A program made the position numbers and the translations under genes. From an uncultured Candidatus Rokubacteria bacterium (GTDB lineage Bacteria > Methylomirabilota > Methylomirabilia > Rokubacteriales > CSP1-6), in assembly GCA_963771355.1 (NCBI GenBank), contig CAVYTA010000006.1, positions 448,001 to 512,000 of the forward strand: a stretch of 64,000 nucleotides of DNA, written 5' to 3'. Below are positions 24,894-46,244 of this stretch, piece after piece (the stretch's first letter is position 1; every line of letters begins with the position of its first letter). The notes beneath the pieces were generated by a model. The model ran no database searches and had not been told where the DNA came from. It saw only the letters and a list, made by a program, of their open reading frames with translations.

Positions 24894-26408
24894 TCAGCGC
24901 CGCGGCGTCGAGCCTTCCTGCAACAGCCAGTCGATGATGGCGCCGCCGTCGTCGGCCTCGCGCGCCGGTGGCGGTGACGCCGGTGTACGCGGCGGCGGTA
25001 CCGCCCGCGTCTCCACCGAGGACGACGGCGCCTCCACCGCCGCTGGTCTCGGCAGACTCTCGGCCGCTGAGCGAGGCACTGTCGCCCTCGGGGGCGGGGA
25101 CACCGGGCTGGGCACCACGTCACGCGCGACCGGGCGCGAGGGCGGCCTCGAGGCCGGGGTTGCCGCCGGGGGGAGCGTCACCACGGGGGGCGGCGCGGGC
25201 GCGGGAGGCAGCGCGGCCGGGGGAGGCAGCGCGGGCGCGGAAGGCGGCACGGACGCGGTAGGCAATGCGGCCGGGGGAGACGGCGCGGGAGCGGGGGGCA
25301 GCGCGGCCGGGGGAGGCAGCGCGGGCGCAGACGGTAACGGCGCCTCGGCCACGGGCGGCGGCGGCGAGGCGACCTGGGTGGGTGTCGGAGCCGGCGGCGC
25401 GAGGAGCGGAACCGGGTCGGGTGCGCCGAGCCACGATCCGCCCAGTACGATCGCCACGCCGCCCACGACCACGAGCACGCCGGCGGCCAGCCAGACTCGC
25501 TTCCCGACTCCAGCACGCCCCCGATGATCCGCGCCCCGCCCCTGCCGGCCGGTCCTGTTGAATGGGCTGATCTCGCTCCAGAGATCGTTGAAGAGATCGG
25601 TGACGTCGCGGTGGCGCCGGGACGGCTCCGGTGCCAGCGCCCGCATGACGATCCGTTCGAGGGTCCGCGTGACTTCGGGCCGGAGCTTGCGAACCGCCAG
25701 GGTACCGCCGCGTCGCCGCCTCGCCAGATGCGTGCCCGGCGGCCGGCCCGTCAGCATCTCGTAGAGCAGCGCGCCCACCGCGAATACATCGCTCTGATTC
25801 GTGGCCTCGCCGGTGAGGGATTGCTCCGGCGCCTGATAGGGCGTGGTGAGTCCCCCCACCGTGCGTGCCCCCCGGCGGCTCAGCCAGCGTGCTGTCCGCA
25901 CCCAGTCGAGGCCGAACTGGGTGAGCTTGACGGTCTCCTCCCCTCCCACCAGCGCGACGTTCTGCGGGCTGAGACAGCCGTGAATCACGCCCAGCATGTG
26001 GGCGACTTCGAGGGGCTCGGCGATGCCGATGGCGAGGCGTACCGCGCGCTCCGGCCGGAAGGGCCCGTCGCGCCGCAAGGCTTCCGCGAGCGTCACCCCT
26101 TCGGGCGGCTCGAGCGCGAGGTAGAGCGCGCCGCCGGGCGTGACGCCGCACTCGTACACCGCGGCGATCGAGGGACAGCGGGCGGAGAGCGCGACGAGCC
26201 GGCCCGCGTGCTCGCGCATGGACCGGACAAGCTCCTCGTCGCGGGCGGCATCGTGAGCGAGGACGCGCAGAGTCACCCGCGCGCGGGTGTCGGCGCGCTC
26301 GGCGAGGTACAGGGCATCCTGGACCCCGGGCACGAGCGTCTCGATTGTCCGGTACGGGCCGTAGCCCGTGGGCGTGGGCTCGGTCGTAGGTACGGAGGGA
26401 AGCGTCAC
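24894..26408 (-). CDS. Membrane-anchored Hanks-type Ser/Thr kinase-fold protein, probable pseudokinase, with Pro-rich C-terminus
   Basis: Kinase C-lobe motifs retained (YQAPEQ, SDVFAVGALLYEMLTGRPP); catalytic motifs degenerate (VTLR, HGCLSPQN, QFG); TM helix followed by a Pro-rich tail. Confidence 0.8.
   Translation of the reverse strand: MTLPSVPTTEPTPTGYGPYRTIETLVPGVQDALYLAERADTRARVTLRVLAHDAARDEELVRSMREHAGRLVALSARCPSIAAVYECGVTPGGALYLALEPPEGVTLAEALRRDGPFRPERAVRLAIGIAEPLEVAHMLGVIHGCLSPQNVALVGGEETVKLTQFGLDWVRTARWLSRRGARTVGGLTTPYQAPEQSLTGEATNQSDVFAVGALLYEMLTGRPPGTHLARRRRGGTLAVRKLRPEVTRTLERIVMRALAPEPSRRHRDVTDLFNDLWSEISPFNRTGRQGRGADHRGRAGVGKRVWLAAGVLVVVGGVAIVLGGSWLGAPDPVPLLAPPAPTPTQVASPPPPVAEAPLPSAPALPPPAALPPAPAPSPPAALPTASVPPSAPALPPPAALPPAPAPPPVVTLPPAATPASRPPSRPVARDVVPSPVSPPPRATVPRSAAESLPRPAAVEAPSSSVETRAVPPPRTPASPPPAREADDGGAIIDWLLQEGSTPRR
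25195..25330. repeat. Intragenic duplication of about 45 bp at 90-bp spacing encoding PSAPALPPPAALPPAPAP
   Basis: GGCAGCGCGGCCGGGGGAGGCAGCGCGGGCGC occurs at about 25207 and 25297. Confidence 0.75.
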
Positions 26409-27527: not shown

Positions 27528-27702
27528 GGGGGCCTTACATCAAGAACTGTCGGAAACATTGCCTTTTTGAGGGATGCGCAGGACTTACCGTCAGATAACT
27601 AGCTGAATTAATTGACAAGTTATAATCAGCACGGAACGTGCATATAACCCGTCCGAGCCGACCGACCGATGACTCTCATGCGAATTACCTGTCGGCAGAA
27701 GA

Positions 27703-27749: not shown

Positions 27750-27971
27750 ATGAGCGAGCACAAGCCAGAGTCAAACGAGATTCGACGCGTCGCCGCCGAC
27801 AAGACGGGCGACAAGGCGTCCTCGCCCAGCCGCCGGCGGGCCCTCAAGGCCGCGCTGGCTGCGACCCCCATCATCATGTCGATCAAGAGTCGGCCCGCCT
27901 TCGCGGGCCCCGCCTGCGATCAGGCTACGACCAGCTGCCAGCAATCCTCCCGTCTGTCCAGTGTCCACTAG
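27750..27971 (+). CDS. Putative RiPP precursor peptide with Tat-like leader and 21-aa Cys/Ser/Thr-rich core
   Basis: SRRRALK...TPIIMSIKSRPAFA|GPACDQATTSCQQSSRLSSVH; has an RBS; first gene ahead of PqqD/kinase/nucleotidyltransferase. Confidence 0.7.
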   Translation: MSEHKPESNEIRRVAADKTGDKASSPSRRRALKAALAATPIIMSIKSRPAFAGPACDQATTSCQQSSRLSSVH

Positions 27972-28059
27972 GCCGTAAGAAGAAGTAAGCGAAGGTCGCC
28001 CCGTCCCACCCTCCTCACCCCGGATTCTCTCGGCTCCACCCGATTCCTCCGAAACGAGC

Positions 28060-28332
28060 TGGCAGCTGGCCGAGGGCTGTCGTCTGCACTGGAAGGCCTG
28101 GGACGACGAGTTCGTGATCTTCGACGAAGGCTCGGGTGATACGCACCTGCTCGACCCGCTGGCCGCCGAGTTCCTGAAGGTCCTCGAAGAGTCGCCGGGG
28201 GAGGTGCCCGGCCTCGCCCGTCGGCTCGGGGCGCGGCTCGATCTTGCGCGCGACGCCGATCTCACCCGGCGCGTGCGCGAGCTGGTGGAGCGGTTCGTCG
28301 CCGTCGGCCTGGTGGAAGCCGCGCATCCGTGA
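28060..28332 (+). CDS. PqqD-family peptide chaperone / RiPP recognition element, HPr-rel-A type
   Basis: WQLAEGCRLHWKAWDDEFVIFDEGSGDTHLLDPLAAEFLKVL...GLV. Homology appears to extend upstream of the ORF-track GTG at 28114; true start unresolved (frame is open from 27979). Confidence 0.85.
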   Translation, partial: WQLAEGCRLHWKAWDDEFVIFDEGSGDTHLLDPLAAEFLKVLEESPGEVPGLARRLGARLDLARDADLTRRVRELVERFVAVGLVEAAHP

Positions 28333-29247
28333 AGCTGGGTGCGCTGACCCTCCCCGAGCTCACCGCGCGGCTCGCGCGCGGCGGCCTCGACATGGACACC
28401 GGGCCGTTCGTGGTGCGCATCGAGACGGAGATCCCCGCGCTCGCCGAGGAGATCCATCTCCTCTACGGCGATTTCTCCGTGGACGAGGGCGGTGGCCTGG
28501 CCGACTTCCACGTGTCGGTCCGCCGCCCGGCGGGACCGCTCGGGTTACGCCGGTGGTGGCGTCAACAGGTCAAGGTCTATCTCGATGAGGCGCGTCCCTT
28601 CGAGCCCCTGCCCATTGACATGGCGGTGCCGGTGCTGGAGTGGAGCATCAACTGGTGCGCCGCCACCCAGGCCAATCAGTACGTGATGATCCACGCCGCG
28701 GTGCTCGAGCGCGACCGGCGGGTCCTCGTGTTGCCCGGCGTCAGCGGAGCTGGCAAGAGCACGTTGTGCGCGGGCCTGGCCCTGCGAGGCTGGCGGCTCT
28801 TCTCGGACGAGTTCGCCCTGATTCGTCCGGCCGACGGGCAGGTAGATCCATGGCCGCGGCCCATCAGCCTCAAGAACGACTCCATCGAGGTGATCCGACG
28901 ATGGGCTCCCGACTCGCGCCTGAGCACGCTCGTGCCCAATACCAAGAAGGGCACGATGGCGCACCTGCGCCCGCCCGCCGGGAGTGTCGAGCGGGTGGGG
29001 GAGCCGGCGATGCCGGCGTGGATCGTGTTCCCCACCTTCGCGCGCGAGGCGGCGCCGCAGCTCGACTCGCCTGCCGCGCGCCCGCGCCTTCTTCAAGCTC
29101 GCTGACTGCTCGTTCAACTACGAGTCCCTCGGCCTTCGAGGCTTCACCACGCTTTCGCGTATGATCGACGGGTGCGACGCCTACGAGTTCACCTACTCGA
29201 GCCTCGAGGACGCCCAGAGCCTGCTCGGCGCGCTGCCGCTGCCCTAG
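28329..29247 (+). pseudogene. HprK-related kinase A, interrupted by a +1 frameshift near 29060-29070 (real lesion or assembly error)
   Basis: IHAAVLER, GVSGAGKST Walker A, LFSDEFAL, PRPISLKN, TKKGTMAH. The expected C-terminus (RAFFKLADCSFNYESLG...YEFTYSSLEDA) is in the next frame and ends at 29247. Confidence 0.85.
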
Positions 29248-29260
29248 GGTCGGCCTCCTG

Positions 29261-30331
29261 ATGGACCGCGCGTTGCTTCTCCGCGCGCTCCGCGAGCCCG
29301 CGTCGATGGGCGGCCTGGCGCCCGCCGAGTGGGACGTCCTCCTCCGCCAGGGCCGGCACATGGGCGCGCTCGGCCGTCTCTGCGCCCTCGCCGCGGCGGC
29401 CGGCGTGCTGCCCGCGGTGCCGTCCCGGGTGCGCGTGCGCCTGGAGGCGGCGCTGGAAGACGTGGAGCAGCAGCACCGGCTCATCCGGTGGGAAGTCATC
29501 CGCCTCCGCCGAGCGCTGGTCGGGACCGGCGTGCCCCTCGTGCTGCTCAAGGGCGCCGCGTATCTCCACGCCGGGCTGCCAGCCTCACGCGGCCGCCAGT
29601 TCTCGGATGTCGACATCCTGGTGCCGCGCGCGAGCCTCCACGAGGTCGAGGCTGCCCTGCTCCGCGAAGGCTGGAAAATGGAAGAGATCAGCGCGTACGA
29701 CGAGCGCTACTACCGGGAATGGTCACACGAGCTTCCGCCGCTGGTGCACCCGAAGCGGCACGTGATGCTGGACGTGCATCACAATATCCTGCCGCCGACC
29801 GGGCGGCTGCGACCGGATCCGCGGCGGCTGCTGGAGGCGACGGTCCCCGTCGCGGCGGACGGACTCCGGGTGCTCGGGCCCGCGGACATGGTGCTGCACA
29901 GCGCCTGCCACCTCCTCCAGTCGGGCGAGCACGACAAGAGCCTGCGCGACCTCGGGGACCTGGACGCGCTGATACGGCAGTTCGCCGCCGCACCGCGCTT
30001 CGGTGACGAGCTGGCCGCGCGCGCGGCCGCCCTCGACCTCGAGCGGCCGCTCTACTACGCGCTGCGCTTCGCCGCGCAGCTGATCGGCACGCCGATTCCC
30101 GAGGCCAGTGCCCGCGCCGTCCGACACGCGGCGCCCCCCGCCCCCGTTCGCGCGGCCATGGACCGTCTCTTCGCAGCCACCATCCAGCCCGCACCTCCAC
30201 TGGATCCGCCGGGTCGCGTCAGGCTGGCGCGGGCGGTGCTGACGGCTCGTTACCACTGGCTGCGCATGCCCCCCTCGCTCCTTGTCCGTCATCTCGCGCA
30301 CAAGATCGGAGGAAGGAGGAAACGCGGGTGA
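29261..30331 (+). CDS. Nucleotidyltransferase family protein (NTP_transf_5-like)
   Basis: LVLLKGAAY, RQFSDVDILVP, YYREWSHELPP, LDVHHNILP, LRDLGDL. Confidence 0.88.
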   Translation: MDRALLLRALREPASMGGLAPAEWDVLLRQGRHMGALGRLCALAAAAGVLPAVPSRVRVRLEAALEDVEQQHRLIRWEVIRLRRALVGTGVPLVLLKGAAYLHAGLPASRGRQFSDVDILVPRASLHEVEAALLREGWKMEEISAYDERYYREWSHELPPLVHPKRHVMLDVHHNILPPTGRLRPDPRRLLEATVPVAADGLRVLGPADMVLHSACHLLQSGEHDKSLRDLGDLDALIRQFAAAPRFGDELAARAAALDLERPLYYALRFAAQLIGTPIPEASARAVRHAAPPAPVRAAMDRLFAATIQPAPPLDPPGRVRLARAVLTARYHWLRMPPSLLVRHLAHKIGGRRKRG

Positions 30332-31392
30332 GGAGGCGCCGGCCCCGTCCGTGGCGCCGCGGGCTGCCGGGGCTGGTGGCGCTGGGCGCGGCGATGGCAC
30401 TGACCGCGTGCAGCGGGCTTCCCTGCCGCCTCGGCGCGCCCGCGGAGTTCGTCTCCCTCGGCAAGAATCCCTTCGCCGCCGCGCAGCCCACGCCGGTGGG
30501 CCGATACCTCCATACCCTCGAGGGCTGGCAAGGCGAGCTCTACATGGGCTATGGCGACTACGACGAGAATACCGGGCCCATCGAGGTGTCCGCATACAAC
30601 CCGCGGTGGAGCTCCTACGGCACCAAGCTCCGCTTTCCCACGGAGGCGATCGAGCTCTTTCGCCCCATCGGTGACCGTCTCTACGCGCCCGCCATCGATC
30701 CCCGCGGCGATGGGCCTTCCGCCGCCGTCGCCGTCGGCGAGCCGGACGGCCGCTGGTCCAACAACAAGGACGTGTGGATGACACACGTCTTCGATGTCGC
30801 CACCTTCGACGGGACTGACCTCTGGCTCGTCGGCTCGCGCAAGACTCAGGCGATCGCGGTGCGCAGCCGGGACGGCGGGCGCACATGGGAAACGGCGCTC
30901 GCGCTCGAGCCCCGGGGCGCCGACGGTGACTTTGCCCGCTTTCATTTCGTGTTCGTGCACGGCGGCCGCCTCTACGTCCAGGCGCAGGACCGGCGGGGCG
31001 GGATGTTCCCTCGCTCGAACGCCTTCGACGGCAACGGCTGGACGGACGGGCCCAATCTCCGGCCCATCCCGAACACGGGGGCCAAGCCCCTGGCCGTCGC
31101 GGGCGAGACCGTCTACTTCGGCGCCCGCGGCATCATGGCCTTCGATGGGCGCGCCGTCCGGCTCGCGCGGCCGCCCCAGACCCGCATCCACGATCTCGTC
31201 GTCGCCGAGGGGATCCTCTACGTGCTCGATGGGCGAGAAGTGCTCGGCACTCAGGATCTCGCGTGGTGGATCCCGGTGGCCACCGCGCCCGCCGGGACCA
31301 CGAGCATCGGCGTCCTGGACGGGTATCTCTACGCGGGCACCGTGGAGTCCGAGCTCTTTCGCTACTGCCGGCCGGTCCGCCCCCTTCGGTGA
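30328..31392 (+). CDS. Hypothetical lipoprotein, probable beta-propeller
   Basis: LTAC lipobox; strand repeats (GELYMG, DRLYAP, GRLYVQ, GYLYAG); SRDGGRTW Asp-box; GTGA overlap with the upstream gene. Confidence 0.7.
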   Translation: MRRRRPRPWRRGLPGLVALGAAMALTACSGLPCRLGAPAEFVSLGKNPFAAAQPTPVGRYLHTLEGWQGELYMGYGDYDENTGPIEVSAYNPRWSSYGTKLRFPTEAIELFRPIGDRLYAPAIDPRGDGPSAAVAVGEPDGRWSNNKDVWMTHVFDVATFDGTDLWLVGSRKTQAIAVRSRDGGRTWETALALEPRGADGDFARFHFVFVHGGRLYVQAQDRRGGMFPRSNAFDGNGWTDGPNLRPIPNTGAKPLAVAGETVYFGARGIMAFDGRAVRLARPPQTRIHDLVVAEGILYVLDGREVLGTQDLAWWIPVATAPAGTTSIGVLDGYLYAGTVESELFRYCRPVRPLR

Positions 31393-38744: not shown

Positions 38745-40321
38745 AGGTCGTGGCCCGAGTAGGACAGGTTGAACGACTTGTTGCAGAGCGGAAAGTCCGG
38801 GACGATGTTGTCGAGCACGGCGAGCTCGAGCGCGGGCCAGTTGCGGAACGACGGGTCGACGATCTTGACTCGGCGCAGTGCCTGCGGGCCCGCGGCCCAC
38901 ACCCAGTACCAGACGGGGCCGCGCCACGCTTCCACGCAGGAGACCGCGTCACCGCCCGGGGGCAGCGGCGGGAGCGCGGCCCGCGCGGGACCGTCGGGCA
39001 GGCGTCCGGCCACCATGCTGAAGAGACGCGCCGCCTCGCGTGCCTCGTCGAGACGTACCATGGTCCGTGCCCACACGTCGCCCTGGGCATACACCGCCGG
39101 GGTCACCGCGAGCTCACCGTACGCCGCGAAGGGGGCGTCGCGGCGAAGGTCGGCATCGACGCCGCTGGCGCGCGCCGCCAGCCCCACCACCCCCAGCTCC
39201 CGCGCGAGCTCATGGGAGAGGCGCCCCGTGCCCTGAAGGCGCTCGAGCACGAGGGTATTGCGCAGGCAGAGGCGCGCAATTTCGAGGAACTCCGCCGTGA
39301 TCCGCTCCACGGTGCCCGCCGCCTCCGCGAGCGTGGTCTCCGCCAGGGGGCCGGCGATGCCGCCCGGCACCACCGCCCCTCGCATGAGGCGGTGACCGGT
39401 GAGCCGCTCGTTGAGCCGCAAGAGCTCTTCCCGGAGGCGGAAGCAGTGGGCGTGTCCCCAGGAGAAGCCGGTGTCGTTGACGATCATCCCGACGTCGCCC
39501 ACGTGGTTGTACAGCCGCTCGAGCTCGAGCAGCGCCACCCGCAGCCAGGCCGCCCGCGGCGGCACGTCGCCGCCGGCCAGCCGCTCGAGCGTCTGGGCAT
39601 AGGCGAGCGCGTGCGCCACGCTCTCGTCGCCGGAGACACGCTCCGCCAGCTCCGGCGTGCGCGCGAAGGGGAGCTGCTCGAACAGCTTCTCCGTCCCCTT
39701 GTGGGTGAAGCCCAGGCGCGTCTCGAGGTTGACGATCTCTTCCCCTTCGACGCTGAAGCGGAAGTGGCCTGGCTCGATGATGCCGGCATGCACCGGCCCC
39801 ACCGTGATCTCGAAGATGCCGTCGCCCTCGACCCGCCGGAACGGAAACGGCTGGCCGGCATCCACGAAATCGCGCCGGGGTGCGGCGTCCCGGCGGAGCG
39901 GGTGGTAGCCCTCGGGCCAGAACTGGTGAAGGGTCAGGCGCCGCAGTTCCGGGTGGTCGGAGGGGACGAGACCGAGGAGATCATGGACCTCGCGCTCGAA
40001 CCGGCTCGCCGGGTATGAGCGCGTGGCGAGCGAGGGAAACTGCGGGGCATCGGCGGGCACGGAGACGAGGGCCACCACGAGGGCGCGCGGCGCCAGGGGG
40101 GCGAACACGTAGGTCAGGGTGAAGTCTCCCGTCTCCGGCCGGGTGTCGGTGCCGGCGAGCAGCTCGAGGTCGAGCCCGAGTCGCGCCAGGCGTTCCGCGC
40201 AGGCGGGAATCGCCCCGCGCGGCAGGCGGCAGTGGACGAGCCCGCCGGACCGGACCTCGGCGGCCTCCGCGCCGGCGGCGAGGACCGCCTCGCGCAGGAG
40301 CACGGGGCTGGGCACGCTCAT
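38741..40321 (-). CDS. Ehr/hydrogenase-4-like large subunit (NuoC+D/HyfG-like) lacking NiFe ligands
   Basis: EREVHDLLG, VGPVHAGIIEPGHFRF, HKGTEK, ERVSGDESVAH, ELERLYNH, DPSFRNW, DFPLCNKSFNLSYSGHDL. Confidence 0.88.
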   Translation of the reverse strand: MSVPSPVLLREAVLAAGAEAAEVRSGGLVHCRLPRGAIPACAERLARLGLDLELLAGTDTRPETGDFTLTYVFAPLAPRALVVALVSVPADAPQFPSLATRSYPASRFEREVHDLLGLVPSDHPELRRLTLHQFWPEGYHPLRRDAAPRRDFVDAGQPFPFRRVEGDGIFEITVGPVHAGIIEPGHFRFSVEGEEIVNLETRLGFTHKGTEKLFEQLPFARTPELAERVSGDESVAHALAYAQTLERLAGGDVPPRAAWLRVALLELERLYNHVGDVGMIVNDTGFSWGHAHCFRLREELLRLNERLTGHRLMRGAVVPGGIAGPLAETTLAEAAGTVERITAEFLEIARLCLRNTLVLERLQGTGRLSHELARELGVVGLAARASGVDADLRRDAPFAAYGELAVTPAVYAQGDVWARTMVRLDEAREAARLFSMVAGRLPDGPARAALPPLPPGGDAVSCVEAWRGPVWYWVWAAGPQALRRVKIVDPSFRNWPALELAVLDNIVPDFPLCNKSFNLSYSGHDL

Positions 40322-41760
40322 TCGCCCATCACCGCCGCCAGGCGCTCGAGCGCGGCGGTGAGGCCGGGCGGCCACGCGGTGCCGGTGAGGACGAGGAGCG
40401 ACAGCGCGACGGCCATGGGCGCGGCGCCCTTCCACGTGAGCGTCTCGCGCGCGGGCTCCCGCGCGGAGTCCCCGTAGGCCATGTGGTGCAGCGCGCGCAG
40501 CAGGCCGCCGAAGGCGATGAGCAGGAGGACGAGCCCCAGCGTGGCGGCGAGGCCCCACCCCTCCCGGAAGCCCGCCCCGAAGATCATGAGCTCGCTGATG
40601 AAGAGACCGAAGGGCGGCAGCCCGAGCAGGGCGAGCAGCGCGACCACGAAGCCGCGGCCGGTGACGGGCATGGTGACGAGCAGTCCGCGCACGGACGGGA
40701 TCTCGACGGTGCCGTAGGCGTCGCGAATGCGGCCGGAGAGGAGGAAGAGGACCGACTTGGCGAGCGCATGGTTGCCGAGGTGCAGGGCCGCGCCCGCCAC
40801 GCCCCAGATCCCGCCGAATCCCAGGCCCAGGCACACGAGCCCCAGGTGCTCGACGCTCGAGTACGCGAGCATCCGCTTGAAGTTGGTCGGTGACCAGAGA
40901 AACGCGGCGGCGACCGTCATCGAGGCCAGCCCGAACAGGACGAGCAGGCGCCGCGTGAAGCCGGGGCCGGCGGCCAGGTCCACCACCGTCTTGAAACGCA
41001 GGACCGCGTAGATGCCCACGCTCAGGAGCACTCCGGACATGAGGGCGCTGATGGGCGCGGGCGCCTCGCTGTGGGCGTCGGGGAGCCAGGTGTGCATCGG
41101 AGCGAGCCCCGCCTTCGTCCCGTAGCCGACGAGGAGGAACACGAAGGCCAGCTCGACCACCGGGGCCGGCAGCTGCGGCGCCCAGCGGAGCAGCGTGGTC
41201 CACCGTAGCGCGTGCGCGTCCGCGCCGAGCCGCTGGGCGTCGGCGAAGTAGACGAAGACGGTGCCCACGAACGCCAGCGCGATGCCCACCGAGCAGATCA
41301 GGAGGTACTTGTAGGCGGCCTCCAGGGACGCGCGAGTCCGGTGGAAGTTGACGAGGAACACGGACGCCAGCGTGGTGCCCTCGACCGCCACCCACATGAG
41401 GCCGAGGTCGTCGGTGGTCACCGCCAGCAGCATGGTGAACACGAAGAGGTGGAAGAGCGGGTAGAAGCGCCGCGCGTCCCCGGCCTCCCCGTCGGGCAAG
41501 CCGCCCAGGACCTCGGCCCCGGCCAGGGTGGCCACGATCCCGATGAGCCCCACCATCCAGGCCGAGAGCGCGTCGGCACGGAGGAGCCCGTCGAGCGCCG
41601 TCACCGCGCCGTCGCGAGCCACGCCGGCCACCACCGCGGCGGCGGCGCCGAGGGTGGCGGCCACCGTGGCGGCGTGCACGGCGCGGGCGGCCGGTCCCAC
41701 GGCCCGCCCGAGCAGCGCCGCGCCGGCGAGCGGAGCGAGGAGGAGAACGATCAGGCTCAT
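40318..41760 (-). CDS. hyfF: Hydrogenase-4 subunit F-like antiporter-type membrane subunit
   Basis: WVAVEGTTLAS, LEAAYKY, GYGTKAGLAPMHTWLPDAHSEAP, KRMLAYSSVEH. Confidence 0.88.
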   Translation of the reverse strand: MSLIVLLLAPLAGAALLGRAVGPAARAVHAATVAATLGAAAAVVAGVARDGAVTALDGLLRADALSAWMVGLIGIVATLAGAEVLGGLPDGEAGDARRFYPLFHLFVFTMLLAVTTDDLGLMWVAVEGTTLASVFLVNFHRTRASLEAAYKYLLICSVGIALAFVGTVFVYFADAQRLGADAHALRWTTLLRWAPQLPAPVVELAFVFLLVGYGTKAGLAPMHTWLPDAHSEAPAPISALMSGVLLSVGIYAVLRFKTVVDLAAGPGFTRRLLVLFGLASMTVAAAFLWSPTNFKRMLAYSSVEHLGLVCLGLGFGGIWGVAGAALHLGNHALAKSVLFLLSGRIRDAYGTVEIPSVRGLLVTMPVTGRGFVVALLALLGLPPFGLFISELMIFGAGFREGWGLAATLGLVLLLIAFGGLLRALHHMAYGDSAREPARETLTWKGAAPMAVALSLLVLTGTAWPPGLTAALERLAAVMGE

Positions 41761-42398
41761 CCGCGCAGCTCCCGCAGCCGATCCACGTCGATCGAATCGT
41801 GCTCCCGCCGGATCTGCATCACCATGCCCTCCATGAGGAGGACGATCACGAGCACGTCGAGAAAGACGCCGGCCTCCACCAGGCTGGGCAGGCCGTAGGT
41901 GGCCAGCAGCGCGAGGCCGAAGATTCCGTTCTCGAAGACGAGAAAGCCGAGGACCTGACTCAGCACGTCTCGGCCGGTCACGCAGACGAAGAGGCCGATC
42001 AAGGCCATGGCGAACGCGAGCGGAATGGCGCCCGCCGTGGGCAGGGTGGCGGCGGCGGTGACGGGCAGGATGATCGTGTAGGCGGCCACCACCAGTGCGC
42101 CCGCCACCAGCAGCGCGACGCCGCTCGAGTGGCCGGGTCCGAGCGGGCGCACCGGAGTGCCCGTGGCCATGCGCCACAGGATTCGCGGAATGATCCACGC
42201 CTTGAGCCCGAGCAAGACGATCGCCACGACAAGGAGGGCGGGCTTGCCCGCGAACCAGCCGATGGCGGCGGCGAGGAGCGCGAGCAGCACCGACTGCGCG
42301 ACGAAGAGGCGGAGCCGTCCCGGCCAGCTCTGCCGCCAGACGAGCAGCAGGGTCACCACGAGCGCGAAGAACGTCAGCAGGTTGGTGGTCGCCGTCAC
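41757..42398 (-). CDS. hyfE: Hydrogenase-4 subunit E-like membrane protein
   Basis: KAWIIP, QVLGFLVFENGI, VEAGVFLD, SIDVDRLRELRG; GTG start at 42398. Confidence 0.82.
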   Translation of the reverse strand: MTATTNLLTFFALVVTLLLVWRQSWPGRLRLFVAQSVLLALLAAAIGWFAGKPALLVVAIVLLGLKAWIIPRILWRMATGTPVRPLGPGHSSGVALLVAGALVVAAYTIILPVTAAATLPTAGAIPLAFAMALIGLFVCVTGRDVLSQVLGFLVFENGIFGLALLATYGLPSLVEAGVFLDVLVIVLLMEGMVMQIRREHDSIDVDRLRELRG

Positions 42399-43339
42399 TT
42401 GAGGAGCACCACCGAGGCCACCGACAGGACGGCCAGCGCGAACGACCCGGCGAGCAGCTCGGGCACCCGGAAGAGCCGGAGCTTGGCCACCGCCGTCTCG
42501 AGCACGGCGAGGGCGGCGGCGAGCAGCACGAGCTTGCCCGCCAGCGCCAGCGCGCCCAAGAGCATGGGCAACGCCGCCGCTTCGGTGGGGATCCACCACG
42601 GGAAGAACAGGTTCACGAGGAGGGTGAGGAAGAGGAAGAGCTTCATGGCCCCCGCCCACTGCACCAGGGCCAGGTAGTGGCCGGAATACTCGAGCACCAT
42701 GGCCTCGTGGATCATGGTCAGCTCGAGGTGGGTGGCGGGATTGTCCACCGGGAGCCGGCCGTTCTCCGCGACCATCACGATGAAGAAGGCGAAGAAGGCC
42801 AGGATGTGTCCGGGATGGGCGGCGAGCACGGGATCGCCCCCGATCCGCTCGGCCACGCCCCCGAGGTTGGTGGTGCCGGTACGGATGGCGAGCGCGAATA
42901 CCGCGAGCATGATGGTGGGCTCGGCGAGGGCGGCCACCGCGACGCCCCGGCTCGACCCCATGCCCCCGAAGGCGCTCCCGGAATCGAGGCCGGCGAGGGC
43001 GAGGAAGAAGGTGCCGAGCATGAAGAGATACATGAGGAGGATCACGTTGCCGGCGAAGGCGAGCGCGGGGCGCGTCACGATGACCGGCACCACCGCCGCC
43101 GCCACCAGCATGGTCGCGGCCAGGACATAGGGGGTGACGGCGAACACCCACGAGGTGGTCTCCGAGACCACGGCCTCCTTCTGCAGGAGCTTCGCCAGAT
43201 CGGCGTAGGGCTGCCACGGGCTGGGGCCCCGCCGCCCCACGAGACGGGCCTTGAGGGTGCGGATGAGCCCCACCAGGAGCGGAGCTCCCGCCGCGACCAC
43301 CAGCGTCTGCGCCAGCGCGGCGAGGATGGCGGCGGTCAC
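42395..43339 (-). CDS. hyfC: HyfC/NuoH-like membrane subunit
   Basis: GRRGPSPWQPYADLAKLLQK, FGGMGSSR, ENGRLPVDNPATHLELTMIHEAMVLEYSG. Confidence 0.88.
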   Translation of the reverse strand: MTAAILAALAQTLVVAAGAPLLVGLIRTLKARLVGRRGPSPWQPYADLAKLLQKEAVVSETTSWVFAVTPYVLAATMLVAAAVVPVIVTRPALAFAGNVILLMYLFMLGTFFLALAGLDSGSAFGGMGSSRGVAVAALAEPTIMLAVFALAIRTGTTNLGGVAERIGGDPVLAAHPGHILAFFAFFIVMVAENGRLPVDNPATHLELTMIHEAMVLEYSGHYLALVQWAGAMKLFLFLTLLVNLFFPWWIPTEAAALPMLLGALALAGKLVLLAAALAVLETAVAKLRLFRVPELLAGSFALAVLSVASVVLLK

Positions 43340-45246
43340 GCGAACACCAGGAGGACCAGCAGCGCGGCGAGCACGTAGATGAGGTAGAGGTTCGAGTTGC
43401 CGGACTGGATGGTGCGCACCCGGGCGGTGGCGTGCTGCAGCGCCCGGCTCACGGGGCCGTAGAGCCATTCCTCGGCGAGCCCGCGCGGGAGATTCTCGTA
43501 CGCCATCCGGCGCACGAAGAAGCGCGATTCGGGGTGGTACTCGACCTCGAGCCGCTTCCGGGGCCGATACACGAAATCGAAGATCCGCTTGTACGGGCCG
43601 GCGAAGGAGGCCGCGTTGTACTCCATGCGCGCGGTCTGGAGAAGCCGCCCGCAGCCCCAGGTCGCGGTCCGGCGACGGCCCCGCGGCGCCCCCAACGCCC
43701 AGAGCGCGAGGGTGGGCAGGACCAGACCGAGGCCCAGGGCCAGCGCGATCACCGGCATCGAGAGGCTGGCGAAATCGCCCGCCACCGTGAGGGTGAGGGG
43801 CCACTCCACCAGCACCGGCGTCGGCAGCCCCACCAGGCTCGCCGCCGCCCGGCCCAGCACCGGGAGTACCACCGTGGGAGCCAGGCCCAGCGCGGCACAG
43901 GCGATGGCGAGGAGCACCAGGGCCAGGCGCATCGCGCCGCCCACCTCGTGGGCGCGGGCCGCCGATTCGCTACGCGGGAGCGCGAGAAACGTGATGCCGA
44001 AGGCCCGGACGAAGCAGGCCACCGCGAGGCCGCTGGTGAGCGCGAGCCCGGCGATGGCCAGCGCGAAGACCAGGCTCAGCTCGAGCCGGGGGATCTGGAC
44101 GGTCTGCAGGAGCGCCTGAAAGGTGAGCCATTCGCTCACGAAGCCATTGAGCGGGGGCAGGGCGGCGATGGCCACGGAGCCCACGAGAAAGGCGGCGGCG
44201 GTCCAGGGCATGCGCTTGATGAGCCCGCCCAGCGCCTCCATGTCGCGCGTGCCGGTGGCGTGGACCACCGCGCCGGCGCCGAGGAAGAGCAGCGCCTTGA
44301 AGGCGGCGTGATTGGCCGCGTGGTAGAGGGCGGCGGCCAGCGCGAACACCGCCAGGAACTCGAGGCCGGAGGCGTGGAAGACCATGCCCGCCCCGACACC
44401 GACGAGCACGATGCCCACGTTCTCGATGCTGGAGAAGGCGAGGAGCCGCTTGAGGTCACGCTCGACCAGGGCATAGAGGACGCCCTTCACCGCGGACACC
44501 GTCCCGGCGAGGAGCAGCACCACGCCCCACCAGGCGGGGCCGGGACCGAGCCACTCGAGCCCCGCGCGCAGGAGCCCGTAGATCCCCAGCTTGATCATCA
44601 CCCCGGACATGAGCGCGGAGACATGGCTCGGGGCGGCGGGATGCGCGATGGGGAGCCACACGTGCAGGGGCACCACGCCCGCCTTGCTCGCGAAGCCGAT
44701 GGTGAGGAGGAGCCAGGCCAAGCTGCGCGTGGCCCCGTCCAGGCCCGGGGCGGCGGCCGGCCAGTCCGCGAAGCGCAGGCTTCCCGTCGAGGCGCTCAGC
44801 AGCAGCATGCCGGCGAGCAGACTGGCGAGCCCGGCGTGCGTCATCACCGCGTACACCCACGCCGCCCGCACCACGCCCGGCTCGTCGTGGTCGTGGAGCA
44901 CGAGTGCGTAGGAGGCGAGCGCCATCAGCTCCCACGCGAGGAGAAAGGTCGGCGCATTACCGGCGAGGGGAACCACGCCCATCGCGAGCAAGAAGACGAG
45001 GTAGGAGACACGACCCTTTACCTCTCCCCGGGCCCGGTCCAACGAATAAATCGACGTGGGTACGGAGGTGCCGCCGATGAGGAGGAGGAAGAAGCCGGCG
45101 AGGGGATCCATGCGCAGCTCGAGGCCGCTCAGCGGCACGAGCCACGCAATCTGAACGGACCACTGAGAGCCGAGCAGGCCGGCGAGTCCCAGCCCCGCCG
45201 CGCCGAGCCCGGCCACGGCCCCGCCGACGAGGGCGAGGGAGGACAT
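43336..45246 (-). CDS. hyfB: Hydrogenase-4 subunit B-like antiporter-type membrane subunit
   Basis: WELMALAS, KAGVVPLHVWLPIAHPAAPSHVSALMSG, KRLLAFSSIEN, PPLNGFVSEW, TWGCG. Confidence 0.9.
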   Translation of the reverse strand: MSSLALVGGAVAGLGAAGLGLAGLLGSQWSVQIAWLVPLSGLELRMDPLAGFFLLLIGGTSVPTSIYSLDRARGEVKGRVSYLVFLLAMGVVPLAGNAPTFLLAWELMALASYALVLHDHDEPGVVRAAWVYAVMTHAGLASLLAGMLLLSASTGSLRFADWPAAAPGLDGATRSLAWLLLTIGFASKAGVVPLHVWLPIAHPAAPSHVSALMSGVMIKLGIYGLLRAGLEWLGPGPAWWGVVLLLAGTVSAVKGVLYALVERDLKRLLAFSSIENVGIVLVGVGAGMVFHASGLEFLAVFALAAALYHAANHAAFKALLFLGAGAVVHATGTRDMEALGGLIKRMPWTAAAFLVGSVAIAALPPLNGFVSEWLTFQALLQTVQIPRLELSLVFALAIAGLALTSGLAVACFVRAFGITFLALPRSESAARAHEVGGAMRLALVLLAIACAALGLAPTVVLPVLGRAAASLVGLPTPVLVEWPLTLTVAGDFASLSMPVIALALGLGLVLPTLALWALGAPRGRRRTATWGCGRLLQTARMEYNAASFAGPYKRIFDFVYRPRKRLEVEYHPESRFFVRRMAYENLPRGLAEEWLYGPVSRALQHATARVRTIQSGNSNLYLIYVLAALLVLLVFA

Positions 45247-45755
45247 CAGCGACGGCGGCCGATGGCGTCGAGAAGACCCGCGAGGAGCGCCGTCGGCGAG
45301 GGCGGGCAGCCGGGGATCACGCCGTCCACGGGCACGACGGCGGCGACGCCTCCCACGATGGCATACGAGCCCTGAAAGATGCCGCCGTCGCGCCCGCAGT
45401 CGCCGGCGGCGATCACGAGCTTGGGATCCGGGGTCGCCTCCCACGTGAGGCGGAGCGCCTCGGCCATGTTCAGGGTGACGGGGCCGGTGACGAGGAGGCA
45501 GTCGGCGTGGCGGGGTGAGGCCACGAAGTGCAGGCCGAACCGCTCCAGGTCGTAGTGGGGGCCGGTGAGCCCGCCGATCTCGAGCTCGCAGCCATTGCAG
45601 GAGCCGGCGTCCACCTGGCGGATATGCAGCGAGCGCCCGAAGCGGCGATGCACCTCGGCGCCCAGTCGGGCCCCGATCCCCTCGAGGGCGGGATCATGAG
45701 CCGGGGGCTCGGTGACGATTCCGGCTCGAAGCCCCACACTCAGCTGGCGGATCAT
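45246..45755 (-). CDS. NuoB/HyfI-like Fe-S small subunit (EhrS-like)
   Basis: DAGSCNGCELE, ASPRHAD, AGDCG, IPGCPP. Confidence 0.9.
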   Translation of the reverse strand: MIRQLSVGLRAGIVTEPPAHDPALEGIGARLGAEVHRRFGRSLHIRQVDAGSCNGCELEIGGLTGPHYDLERFGLHFVASPRHADCLLVTGPVTLNMAEALRLTWEATPDPKLVIAAGDCGRDGGIFQGSYAIVGGVAAVVPVDGVIPGCPPSPTALLAGLLDAIGRRR

Positions 45756-45926
45756 CTATTGCAGAGCGTCGGGTCGAGGGACAAGACTCTCACCATCCTC
45801 CACATACCGAATCCGCGAGACGCAGTCAAGTAATCGGCGGCGCCGTGGCAGGGAGTCCGGGACGGACGTGGACAGACGCCTGCATCAGGGAGAGAGGCTG
45901 CTCTGACGACTGGCGAGGAAGGCGAA

Positions 45927-46244
45927 CTAGCGGCGGAAGCCGCGGTCGCCGCCGCGGTCGCGGTCACCGCCGCCCCCGCCGCCGCCCCGCTTGGCTCCGG
46001 TCGATTGCGACCGCTCGACCTTCAGCTGGCGGCCGTCCACCTTCGCCCCGTTGAAGCGGGAGATCGCCGCATCGGCGTCCTCGGGGGTGGCCATCTCGAC
46101 GAACCCGAAACCGCGCGATTGCCCGGTCTGGCGGTCCGTGACGACCGTGGCCGACTCGACACGGCCGGCTTCCGCGAAGATCTCGCGCAGCCGCTCGCTC
46201 GAGGTGGAGAAGGAGAGACCGCCGACGAAGAGCTTGTCCGCCAT
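45927..46244 (-). CDS. RRM-domain RNA-binding protein with Gly/Arg-rich tail
   Basis: RNP2 LFVGGL, RNP1 RGFGFVEM. Confidence 0.93.
   Translation of the reverse strand: MADKLFVGGLSFSTSSERLREIFAEAGRVESATVVTDRQTGQSRGFGFVEMATPEDADAAISRFNGAKVDGRQLKVERSQSTGAKRGGGGGGGDRDRGGDRGFRR

Follow-up and report, generated by a model that had tools for sequence, protein, structure and literature searches.

A run of five genes occupies positions 27750-31392 of a 64,000-nt stretch (hereafter the window; contig CAVYTA010000006.1, positions 448,001-512,000 of the forward strand, assembly GCA_963771355.1) from an uncultured Candidatus Rokubacteria bacterium. The genes encode, in order, a 73-residue peptide, a PqqD-like protein of the type that serves as a recognition element (RRE) for peptides that are made on ribosomes and modified after translation (RiPPs), an HprK-related kinase, a protein of nucleotidyltransferase (NTase) fold and a putative lipoprotein (Table 1). 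All five open reading frames (ORFs) are co-oriented, as the original prediction from the sequence had them, and the GTGA overlaps that it described at the PqqD/kinase (28329-28332) and nucleotidyltransferase/lipoprotein (30328-30331) junctions are both in the sequence. In the reading that we consider moderately likely, the first four genes form a cassette of which the peptide is the likely substrate, to be phosphorylated, capped and then exported through the twin-arginine translocation (Tat) pathway.

Table 1. Features of the operon and its upstream region, in window coordinates
Feature	Position	Strand	Basis or remark
Degenerate PEP-CTERM-box-like enhancer, motif 1, TGTCGGAAACATTGCC	27548-27564	+	Conserved in relatives; own copy below threshold 9
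Variant sigma-54 -24/-12 site, CAGCACGGAACGTGCAT	27626-27643	+	No canonical GG; best position weight matrix site in the 300 nt upstream (4.6 bits); putative function
Substrate/precursor ORF, 73 aa	27750-27971	+	Homologues, codon selection, position upstream of the RRE
Conserved twin-arginine-type leader S25-A52, RR at 28-29	27822-27905	+	Predicted signal peptidase I site after PAFA; putative Tat export and cleavage
Ser62-x3-Ser66-x3-Ser70 motif in predicted 21-aa core	27933-27959	+	Homologue alignment, codon families
Discrete RRE, PqqD family TIGR04353	28024-28332	+	Family match; start codon probably non-canonical ATT
HprK-related kinase A, TIGR04352	28329-29247	+	Family match; one-base assembly insertion near 29063-29066
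PF14907 nucleotidyltransferase-fold protein	29261-30331	+	Family match, invariant residues, predicted structure
Putative beta-propeller lipoprotein, LTAC lipobox, lineage-specific companion	30328-31392	+	Weak PQQ_2/BNR matches below cut-off

The cassette and its conservation

The three central genes are assigned by family models. The PqqD-like protein scores 59.3 bits against TIGR04353 (cut-off 35), the kinase matches TIGR04352 with 305.8 bits (model positions 2-225) and, in another frame, with 51.6 bits (model positions 223-279), and the third enzyme matches PF14907 with 190.8 bits. With both TIGRFAM models over cut-off, and the TIGR04353 chaperone lying beside the TIGR04352 kinase and a nucleotidyltransferase, the identity with the HPr-rel-A system that had been recognized in the sequence was confirmed. 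These models give names to the enzymes without assigning them a substrate, and to our knowledge the system has been described as one of unknown role. The HPr-rel-A model names had no match in the main text of the literature searched, and no description of the four-gene cassette was found there, subscription papers and bioRxiv supplements lying outside that search. The peptide and the last ORF matched no family above cut-off.

The kinase frame is broken by the extra base listed in Table 1. This base has no counterpart in any of four sequencing runs (4/4), and an intact kinase of 305 aa (P0046) exists whose first 244 aa are identical to those of the window kinase, so the frameshift is an assembly error; the same four runs rule out a true pseudogene. 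One read contig spans 27300-30593, with two other letter differences besides the one-base gap at the break. RNA contigs from one run covered parts of the operon and were not used, since contigs cannot show transcription. The start of the RRE is also unusual. Neither in the window (27972-28060) nor in five same-genus genomes does an ATG, GTG or TTG occur upstream of its conserved N-terminal strands and Trp, and because the GTG at 28114 would truncate this conserved N-terminus, the start is likely the ATT at 28024. Clade relatives (among loci L032-L035, L038 and L145-L159) carry GTG, TTG, ATT or GTT at or adjoining the equivalent codon. A non-canonical start may hold the RRE at low levels relative to the substrate.

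The cassette was followed through 87 kinase loci, drawn from seven related genomes with kinase A over its cut-off (7 of 14 regions) and from the best 80 of 486 confirmed genome loci, an uneven sample made up mostly of Betaproteobacteria. A precursor profile was grown from the window peptide and trained on position-filtered matches. In 84 of the 87 loci it placed a homologue at 0.5-1.7 kb upstream of the kinase, and elsewhere in the loci it gave no match at E<0.05. The NTase is present in all 87 and the RRE in 86, and the gene order precursor-RRE-kinase-NTase is constant; a precursor homologue thus precedes the RRE, kinase and NTase in 84/87 loci, which defines a core of four genes. Two of the three loci without a precursor are contig ends, and the third (L057) is a true miss. 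As a reciprocal check, 151 genomes of the phylum were searched with the precursor profile, and matches at E<=3e-12 fell in exactly the five genomes that carry kinase A. Two weak matches in genomes without kinase A were discarded, one (G147) being the generic Tat signal of a long protein and the other (G078) belonging to a related but different cassette.

The lipoprotein had been counted as part of the system. It occurs at 5 of the 87 loci and is better described as a lineage add-on. Among the 151 phylum genomes it is found in four, all with the cassette; as these are four of the five cassette genomes (it was not found in G096) and no other genome searched has it, the gene is a companion within a single genus. 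Some of its more distant relatives are fused to other domains, and a search of the Atlas returned mostly clusters without names. The five genes could still form a small-peptide RiPP class that includes the lipoprotein and yields a Ser/Thr-phosphate-nucleoside monophosphate (NMP) end product, a reading for which the NTase fold with its intact DxD...D, the confinement of the lipoprotein to cassette genomes of the phylum and its overlap with the NTase stop codon all speak. We regard it as unlikely: the lipoprotein is missing from 82/87 loci, including the short-form loci L036, L037, L076 and L094, 74 of 84 substrates are proteins of about 200 aa, and the sole positive result for such an NTase is a hexose and not an NMP (PMC6993621).

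The probable substrate gene, its serines and its leader

Forty-five close homologues of the window peptide were collected, and all share a near-constant leader followed by variable cores. A more distant set consists of the best 149 profile matches, from which the top match (P0166, 2981 aa with 26 repeats), an unrelated repeat protein, had been dropped. Leader codons from 20 loci (16 distinct leader sequences) differ by 808 synonymous against 150 non-synonymous single-base changes, so the 73-codon ORF is a real gene under purifying selection. Neither Pfam nor NCBIfam has a model for the family, which is large: with E<=0.001 as the limit, a profile of leader plus motif recovered 2,882 clusters (at 50% identity), and with E<=1e-10 still 967.

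What the cores have in common is the motif Ser-x3-Ser-x3-Ser, which follows a spacer of variable length in 44 of the 45 close homologues. The sole homologue without it resembles the copy of genome G002, an assembly with several frameshifts. In the distant set, S-x3-S is kept in 147/149 and the full triplet in 124/149. The third serine is written with AGY in 29 loci and with TCN in 22, and its retention across the two codon families indicates selection on the hydroxyl itself. These serines, which also persist in cores of 20 aa that have no fold to conserve, had been proposed as the likely targets of modification, a proposal that the conservation supports.

Homologous loci had been expected to carry a conserved ORF upstream, headed by a twin-arginine leader, and 84 of the 87 do; the small size expected of it did not hold for most. 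Of 84 substrates, nine are short (61-85 aa), one has 166 aa and 74 are long (184-282 aa), the long ones consisting of leader, Cys, serine motif, Cys, a GxSPGYW segment and a helical domain. Residues RR, S61 and S65 are invariant in 74/74 long forms, RR having doubled as the anchor for cutting the segments. The two cysteines are conserved in 87% and 79% of them, which suggests an oxidizing compartment. A model of a long form reaches a pLDDT of about 97 over residues 81-192, the leader and serine motif not being confidently predicted; the domain has no clear structural match (Foldseek best E 3.9; VIA best Z 3.8), which is no proof of a new fold, and an Atlas search with a long form returned only clusters without names. 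The window locus holds the minimal peptide form, while most Proteobacteria carry a substrate with an extra folded domain. Fusion of precursor and RRE by stop-codon readthrough was considered and rejected, as the two are in frame in only 29/84 loci (about the one third expected by chance) and in the window their frames differ. One Azohydromonas locus (L125:8143-9700) apparently has two tandem substrate genes before the RRE, the second in a 792-nt gap.

Tat signals follow the consensus S/T-R-R-x-F/L-x-K, with an uncharged h-region and an AxA-type cleavage site. Among 85 leaders, F, L or M follows RR-x (position +2) in 77, K or R stands at +4 in 58, an uncharged stretch of at least 12 residues comes after RR in 80, and most end in a small-residue cleavage site. 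TatC is encoded in the window's own genome. A segment T-L-x-S-R-P of the leader is conserved position by position (85/73/82/53/59%), more than generic Tat signals need, and this position-specific conservation suggests a protein partner. The window operon has no SipW-like signal peptidase and no ABC exporter; across the loci, no signal peptidase or lasso B2 protein was found in the recurring neighbour clusters or in the 148 of 157 other neighbours scanned (E<=1e-8), and an ABC-type cluster occurs in just 7/87. Judged from this anatomy, Tat export of the substrate is the more probable course, and the predicted leader, doubling as a Tat signal, would replace a dedicated peptidase and exporter.

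Promoter and genomic setting

The operon had been predicted to have its own promoter. A sigma-70 scan found no promoter on the + strand; the elements that are conserved upstream are of the sigma-54/enhancer type. A sigma-54 matrix score of at least 10 occurs upstream of the precursor in 61/84 loci (none on the reverse strand; 0-2 in shuffles), and at a greater distance upstream 56/60 outside-genus loci have the motif TGTCGGAAATTTTTACA, discovered de novo (0-1 in shuffles). In the window the two elements are 61 nt apart, and both are kept at fixed spacing in 5/5 same-genus genomes and in 13/15 clade metagenome loci. The PEP-CTERM box consists of 17 nt ending in TTTACA, a spacer of 32-92 nt (mean 62.8) and a sigma-54 site (Haft et al., 2006; PMC1569441). 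The cassette family shares with this PEP-CTERM/XrtA regulon the TTTACA-ending motif, the sigma-54 site and frequent co-location with exopolysaccharide (EPS) genes of XrtA systems; it differs in that its substrate has no PEP-CTERM tail and its mean spacer is 85 nt. A PEP-CTERM-type sigma-54 promoter drives the cassette family. For the window copy, whose own elements score below both thresholds, we only infer membership in the regulon.

The genome from which the window comes encodes PrsK, PrsR and three exosortase loci, and the same pair of matrices marks several secreted-looking genes in it, one with a VPAP-type sorting tail. Strong PEP-CTERM-box and sigma-54 pairs occur there (contig handle, position and strand) at C6:696686(-), C5:401405(+), C7:355431(+), C5:323164(-), C5:1003018(+), C6:991354(+), C5:148208(+), C6:710466(+) and C6:159446(-); several stand before secreted-looking or very short Gly/Ser-rich ORFs and are candidates for a PrsR regulon. 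Genes prsK and prsT have been linked to floc formation in a report that, in the part available, mentions neither PqqD nor a nucleotidyltransferase (PMC9850573).

Recurrent neighbours of the 87 loci, labelled by one representative per BLAST cluster, are wza-type (33), PrsT-like (27), PrsK-like (22) and PrsR-like (19) genes. The window operon itself, a single copy in a genome that is 99.8% complete, is flanked by a divergent TAXI-family binding protein on one side and a convergent short-chain dehydrogenase/reductase (SDR) on the other. The predicted absence of lasso machinery was upheld, as PF13471 (lasso B2) has no match in that genome; asparagine-synthase-like genes lie near 4/87 loci, and the one scanned carries a glutaminase domain.

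Several further observations concern the surroundings. A Ser/Thr protein-kinase-like gene with a Pro/Ala-rich tail (24894-26408, - strand) adjoins the TAXI gene and stands beside the cassette in five same-genus genomes, and 6 kb of the window (40001-46000) show a strong AT skew (0.23-0.31), unlike the remainder. At Massilia-type loci (L047-L124), a trypsin-like protease gene (29/87 loci) and a wza-type gene usually lie directly upstream of the substrate gene, and ThiF/FeeM genes (26/87) are often downstream. A second, more distant cassette type occurs in the same phylum (L138/L164 in G078, L042 in G036), with an RR leader of the form KKAAFAAPIIL or RKTAYIVPAVLTL (YxxP is present in the latter); its kinase and NTase are distant ones, and its RRE ends a long ORF. 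A third type, in a neighbouring family (L039-L041, L043-L045), combines an RRE, a distant HprK-like kinase and an NTase domain that ends an ORF of about 800-890 codons; the precursor profile found no match in it.

Proposed chemistry and comparison with known systems

In the kinase, H122, GxGKST at 140-145 (P-loop Lys143) and D160-E161 are invariant in 48/48 sequences, and HprK is the nearest solved sequence (E 0.014). In the NTase, K97-G98, D116-x-D118, D171 and many Arg and His residues are invariant in 80/80; its model (pLDDT 95) resembles Pol-beta-type NTases, namely MenT1 (E 1.4e-4) and ANT(2'')-Ia, and its profile had no match among the sequences of solved structures. For the RRE, the nearest solved chains are the lasso B1 proteins TbiB1 (E 1.3e-3) and TfuB1 (E 0.011).

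In the proposed scheme the RRE would hold the leader of the 73-residue peptide, the kinase would (poly)phosphorylate serines of the Ser-x3-Ser-x3-Ser motif, and the NTase-fold enzyme would cap the phosphate, a sugar phosphodiester being a more likely outcome than a free NMP. Thereafter the leader would act as the Tat signal, which the housekeeping signal peptidase would remove. Made alongside exopolysaccharide and PEP-CTERM proteins, the product would belong to the envelope or the matrix. Phosphorylation of the substrate serines is the probable part of this scheme. The chemistry is drawn by analogy from linear polyphosphorylated peptides (LPP), paeninodin and pseudomycoidin, and Tat export from the anatomy of the leader.

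Several observations weigh against this scheme. At the L057 cassette there is no precursor or RRE within 7.9 kb upstream, and a cassette on a Sphingomonas plasmid (L130:5218-5703) has an RR-leader ORF of 161 aa without the serine motif, which suggests another substrate subfamily. The Y/W-x-x-P RRE motif of lasso and LPP leaders occurs in 1/85 leaders, and with kinase and NTase held constant the divergence of the leaders does not follow that of the RRE: over 68 loci, as related and non-independent pairs without a significance test, partial distance correlations are 0.05 for leader-RRE, 0.36 for leader-NTase and 0.23 for core-kinase. Binding of the leader by the RRE is thus a point that we infer only. 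The kinase family reads His-Lys-Asp-Glu, with Glu161 in place of the second Asp of lasso kinases, in which His-Lys-Asp-Asp is reported to be essential (PMC9266682). The window peptide, with an uncharged stretch of just 12 residues, matches no Tat model, and of 93 family members only 6 match PF10518, 7 TIGR01409 and 9 TIGR02811, all weakly. The window's two promoter elements are sub-threshold and the -24 GG is missing. Finally, deletion of lppN has no effect in LPP (PMC13381572).

The weak or missing Tat matches, together with the T-L-x-S-R-P conservation, would also suit a leader that only docks the RRE and the enzymes, its twin arginine being coincidental and the product staying inside or leaving by another route. 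This is slightly more doubtful than the five-gene class considered above, since most members have RR-x-F/L-x-K, the uncharged stretch and the small-residue cleavage site, the neighbours scanned include no dedicated peptidase or exporter, and the cysteine pair of the long forms points to an oxidizing compartment. Least probable by a little is that kinase and NTase make a sugar-nucleotide or EPS building block, with the upstream ORF encoding a secreted protein under shared regulation, for which the PqqD-like protein is a Tat proofreading chaperone: the frequent EPS/PEP-CTERM setting, fold neighbours of the NTase that act on small molecules or tRNA, and the indirect role left possible by the PsmN authors (PMC6993621) fit it, against which stand cassettes beside unrelated neighbours such as the TAXI protein and SDR of the window, invariant serines in 20-aa cores, and homologous kinases whose target in LPP and lasso systems is the Ser of a precursor.

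A Ser/Thr-phosphate-NMP end product, as originally proposed, has no precedent in the reports considered, as far as available; PsmN gives a hexose (+162) on phospho-Ser, and a sugar cap is slightly favoured over NMP by this single precedent. An improbable variant is that the NTase activates phospho-serine as an NMP anhydride which a hydroxyl displaces. The resulting phosphodiester could be a Ser-phosphate-Ser staple from i to i+4 on one face of a helix, or it could join a Tat-exported protein covalently to exopolysaccharide. Such a reaction would be in keeping with the +162 on the phosphate of pseudomycoidin, with the invariant i, i+4 spacing and with the basic residues that are invariant in the NTase. 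If true, tethering of protein to glycan, or cross-linking of peptides, would be widespread, regulated jointly with the PEP-CTERM biofilm system and dependent on one leader for both enzyme docking and export.

The cassette offers a testable substrate, with exact candidate residues named, for a widespread orphan system, and ties that system to a PEP-CTERM/sigma-54 regulon linked to floc formation. Its 21-residue core is the simplest handle on the function of PF14907 enzymes, a question common to PsmN and LppN.

Among known systems, the lasso peptides paeninodin (PadeK) and pseudomycoidin (PsmK/PsmN) share an HprK-type kinase that acts on precursor Ser, a DxD-dependent NTase-like partner and the lasso B1 proteins to which the RRE is nearest (PMC6993621, PMC9266682). 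One or two hexoses (+162 each) on the phospho-Ser of pseudomycoidin depend on PsmN and on the DxD motif in it; the available parts of these reports show no in vitro activity, and the authors, who used ANT(2'')-Ia as template, consider an indirect role possible (PMC6993621, PMC11912497). In contrast to these systems, the window has no macrolactam cyclase or B2, its target serines are internal and not C-terminal, and the fourth catalytic residue of the kinase is Glu and not Asp.

The closest comparison is LPP (lppA-K-B-S-D-N), reported from Bacillota with an RRE, a TIGR04352 kinase, a PF14907 transferase, a SipW-like peptidase and an ABC exporter (Popov et al., 2026; PMC13381572). The supplement annotates lppK as TIGR04352 and lppN as PF14907, LppK attaches as many as four phosphates to Ser3 of the core, and the authors describe the system as restricted to Bacillota, their main text naming neither Tat nor Proteobacteria nor Pseudomonadota. 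That linear RRE, HprK and PF14907 RiPPs without a cyclase have thus been described weakens the proposal of a candidate new RiPP class. Both systems combine a discrete RRE, a TIGR04352 kinase and a PF14907 transferase without a cyclase, and LPP precursors likewise have a constant N-terminus and a variable C-terminus (35-200 aa), an association with polysaccharide loci and a final product that is not established. LPP differs in its SipW-like peptidase, its MsbA-like exporter, its leader YxxPxVLxHQxIxFETxxS and its single Ser3 target, whereas the cassette family of the window has a twin-arginine leader, YxxP in 1/85 leaders, three serines at i, i+4 and i+8 after a variable spacer and a PEP-CTERM-type sigma-54 promoter, and is found mostly in Proteobacteria. 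The locus thus resembles LPP in its predicted working and is without peptidase, exporter and YxxP leader, so that three features of LPP membership are missing from it. It is likely a Gram-negative counterpart of that peptide class, and would carry the chemistry of LPP beyond Bacillota into Gram-negative bacteria, with export following another logic.

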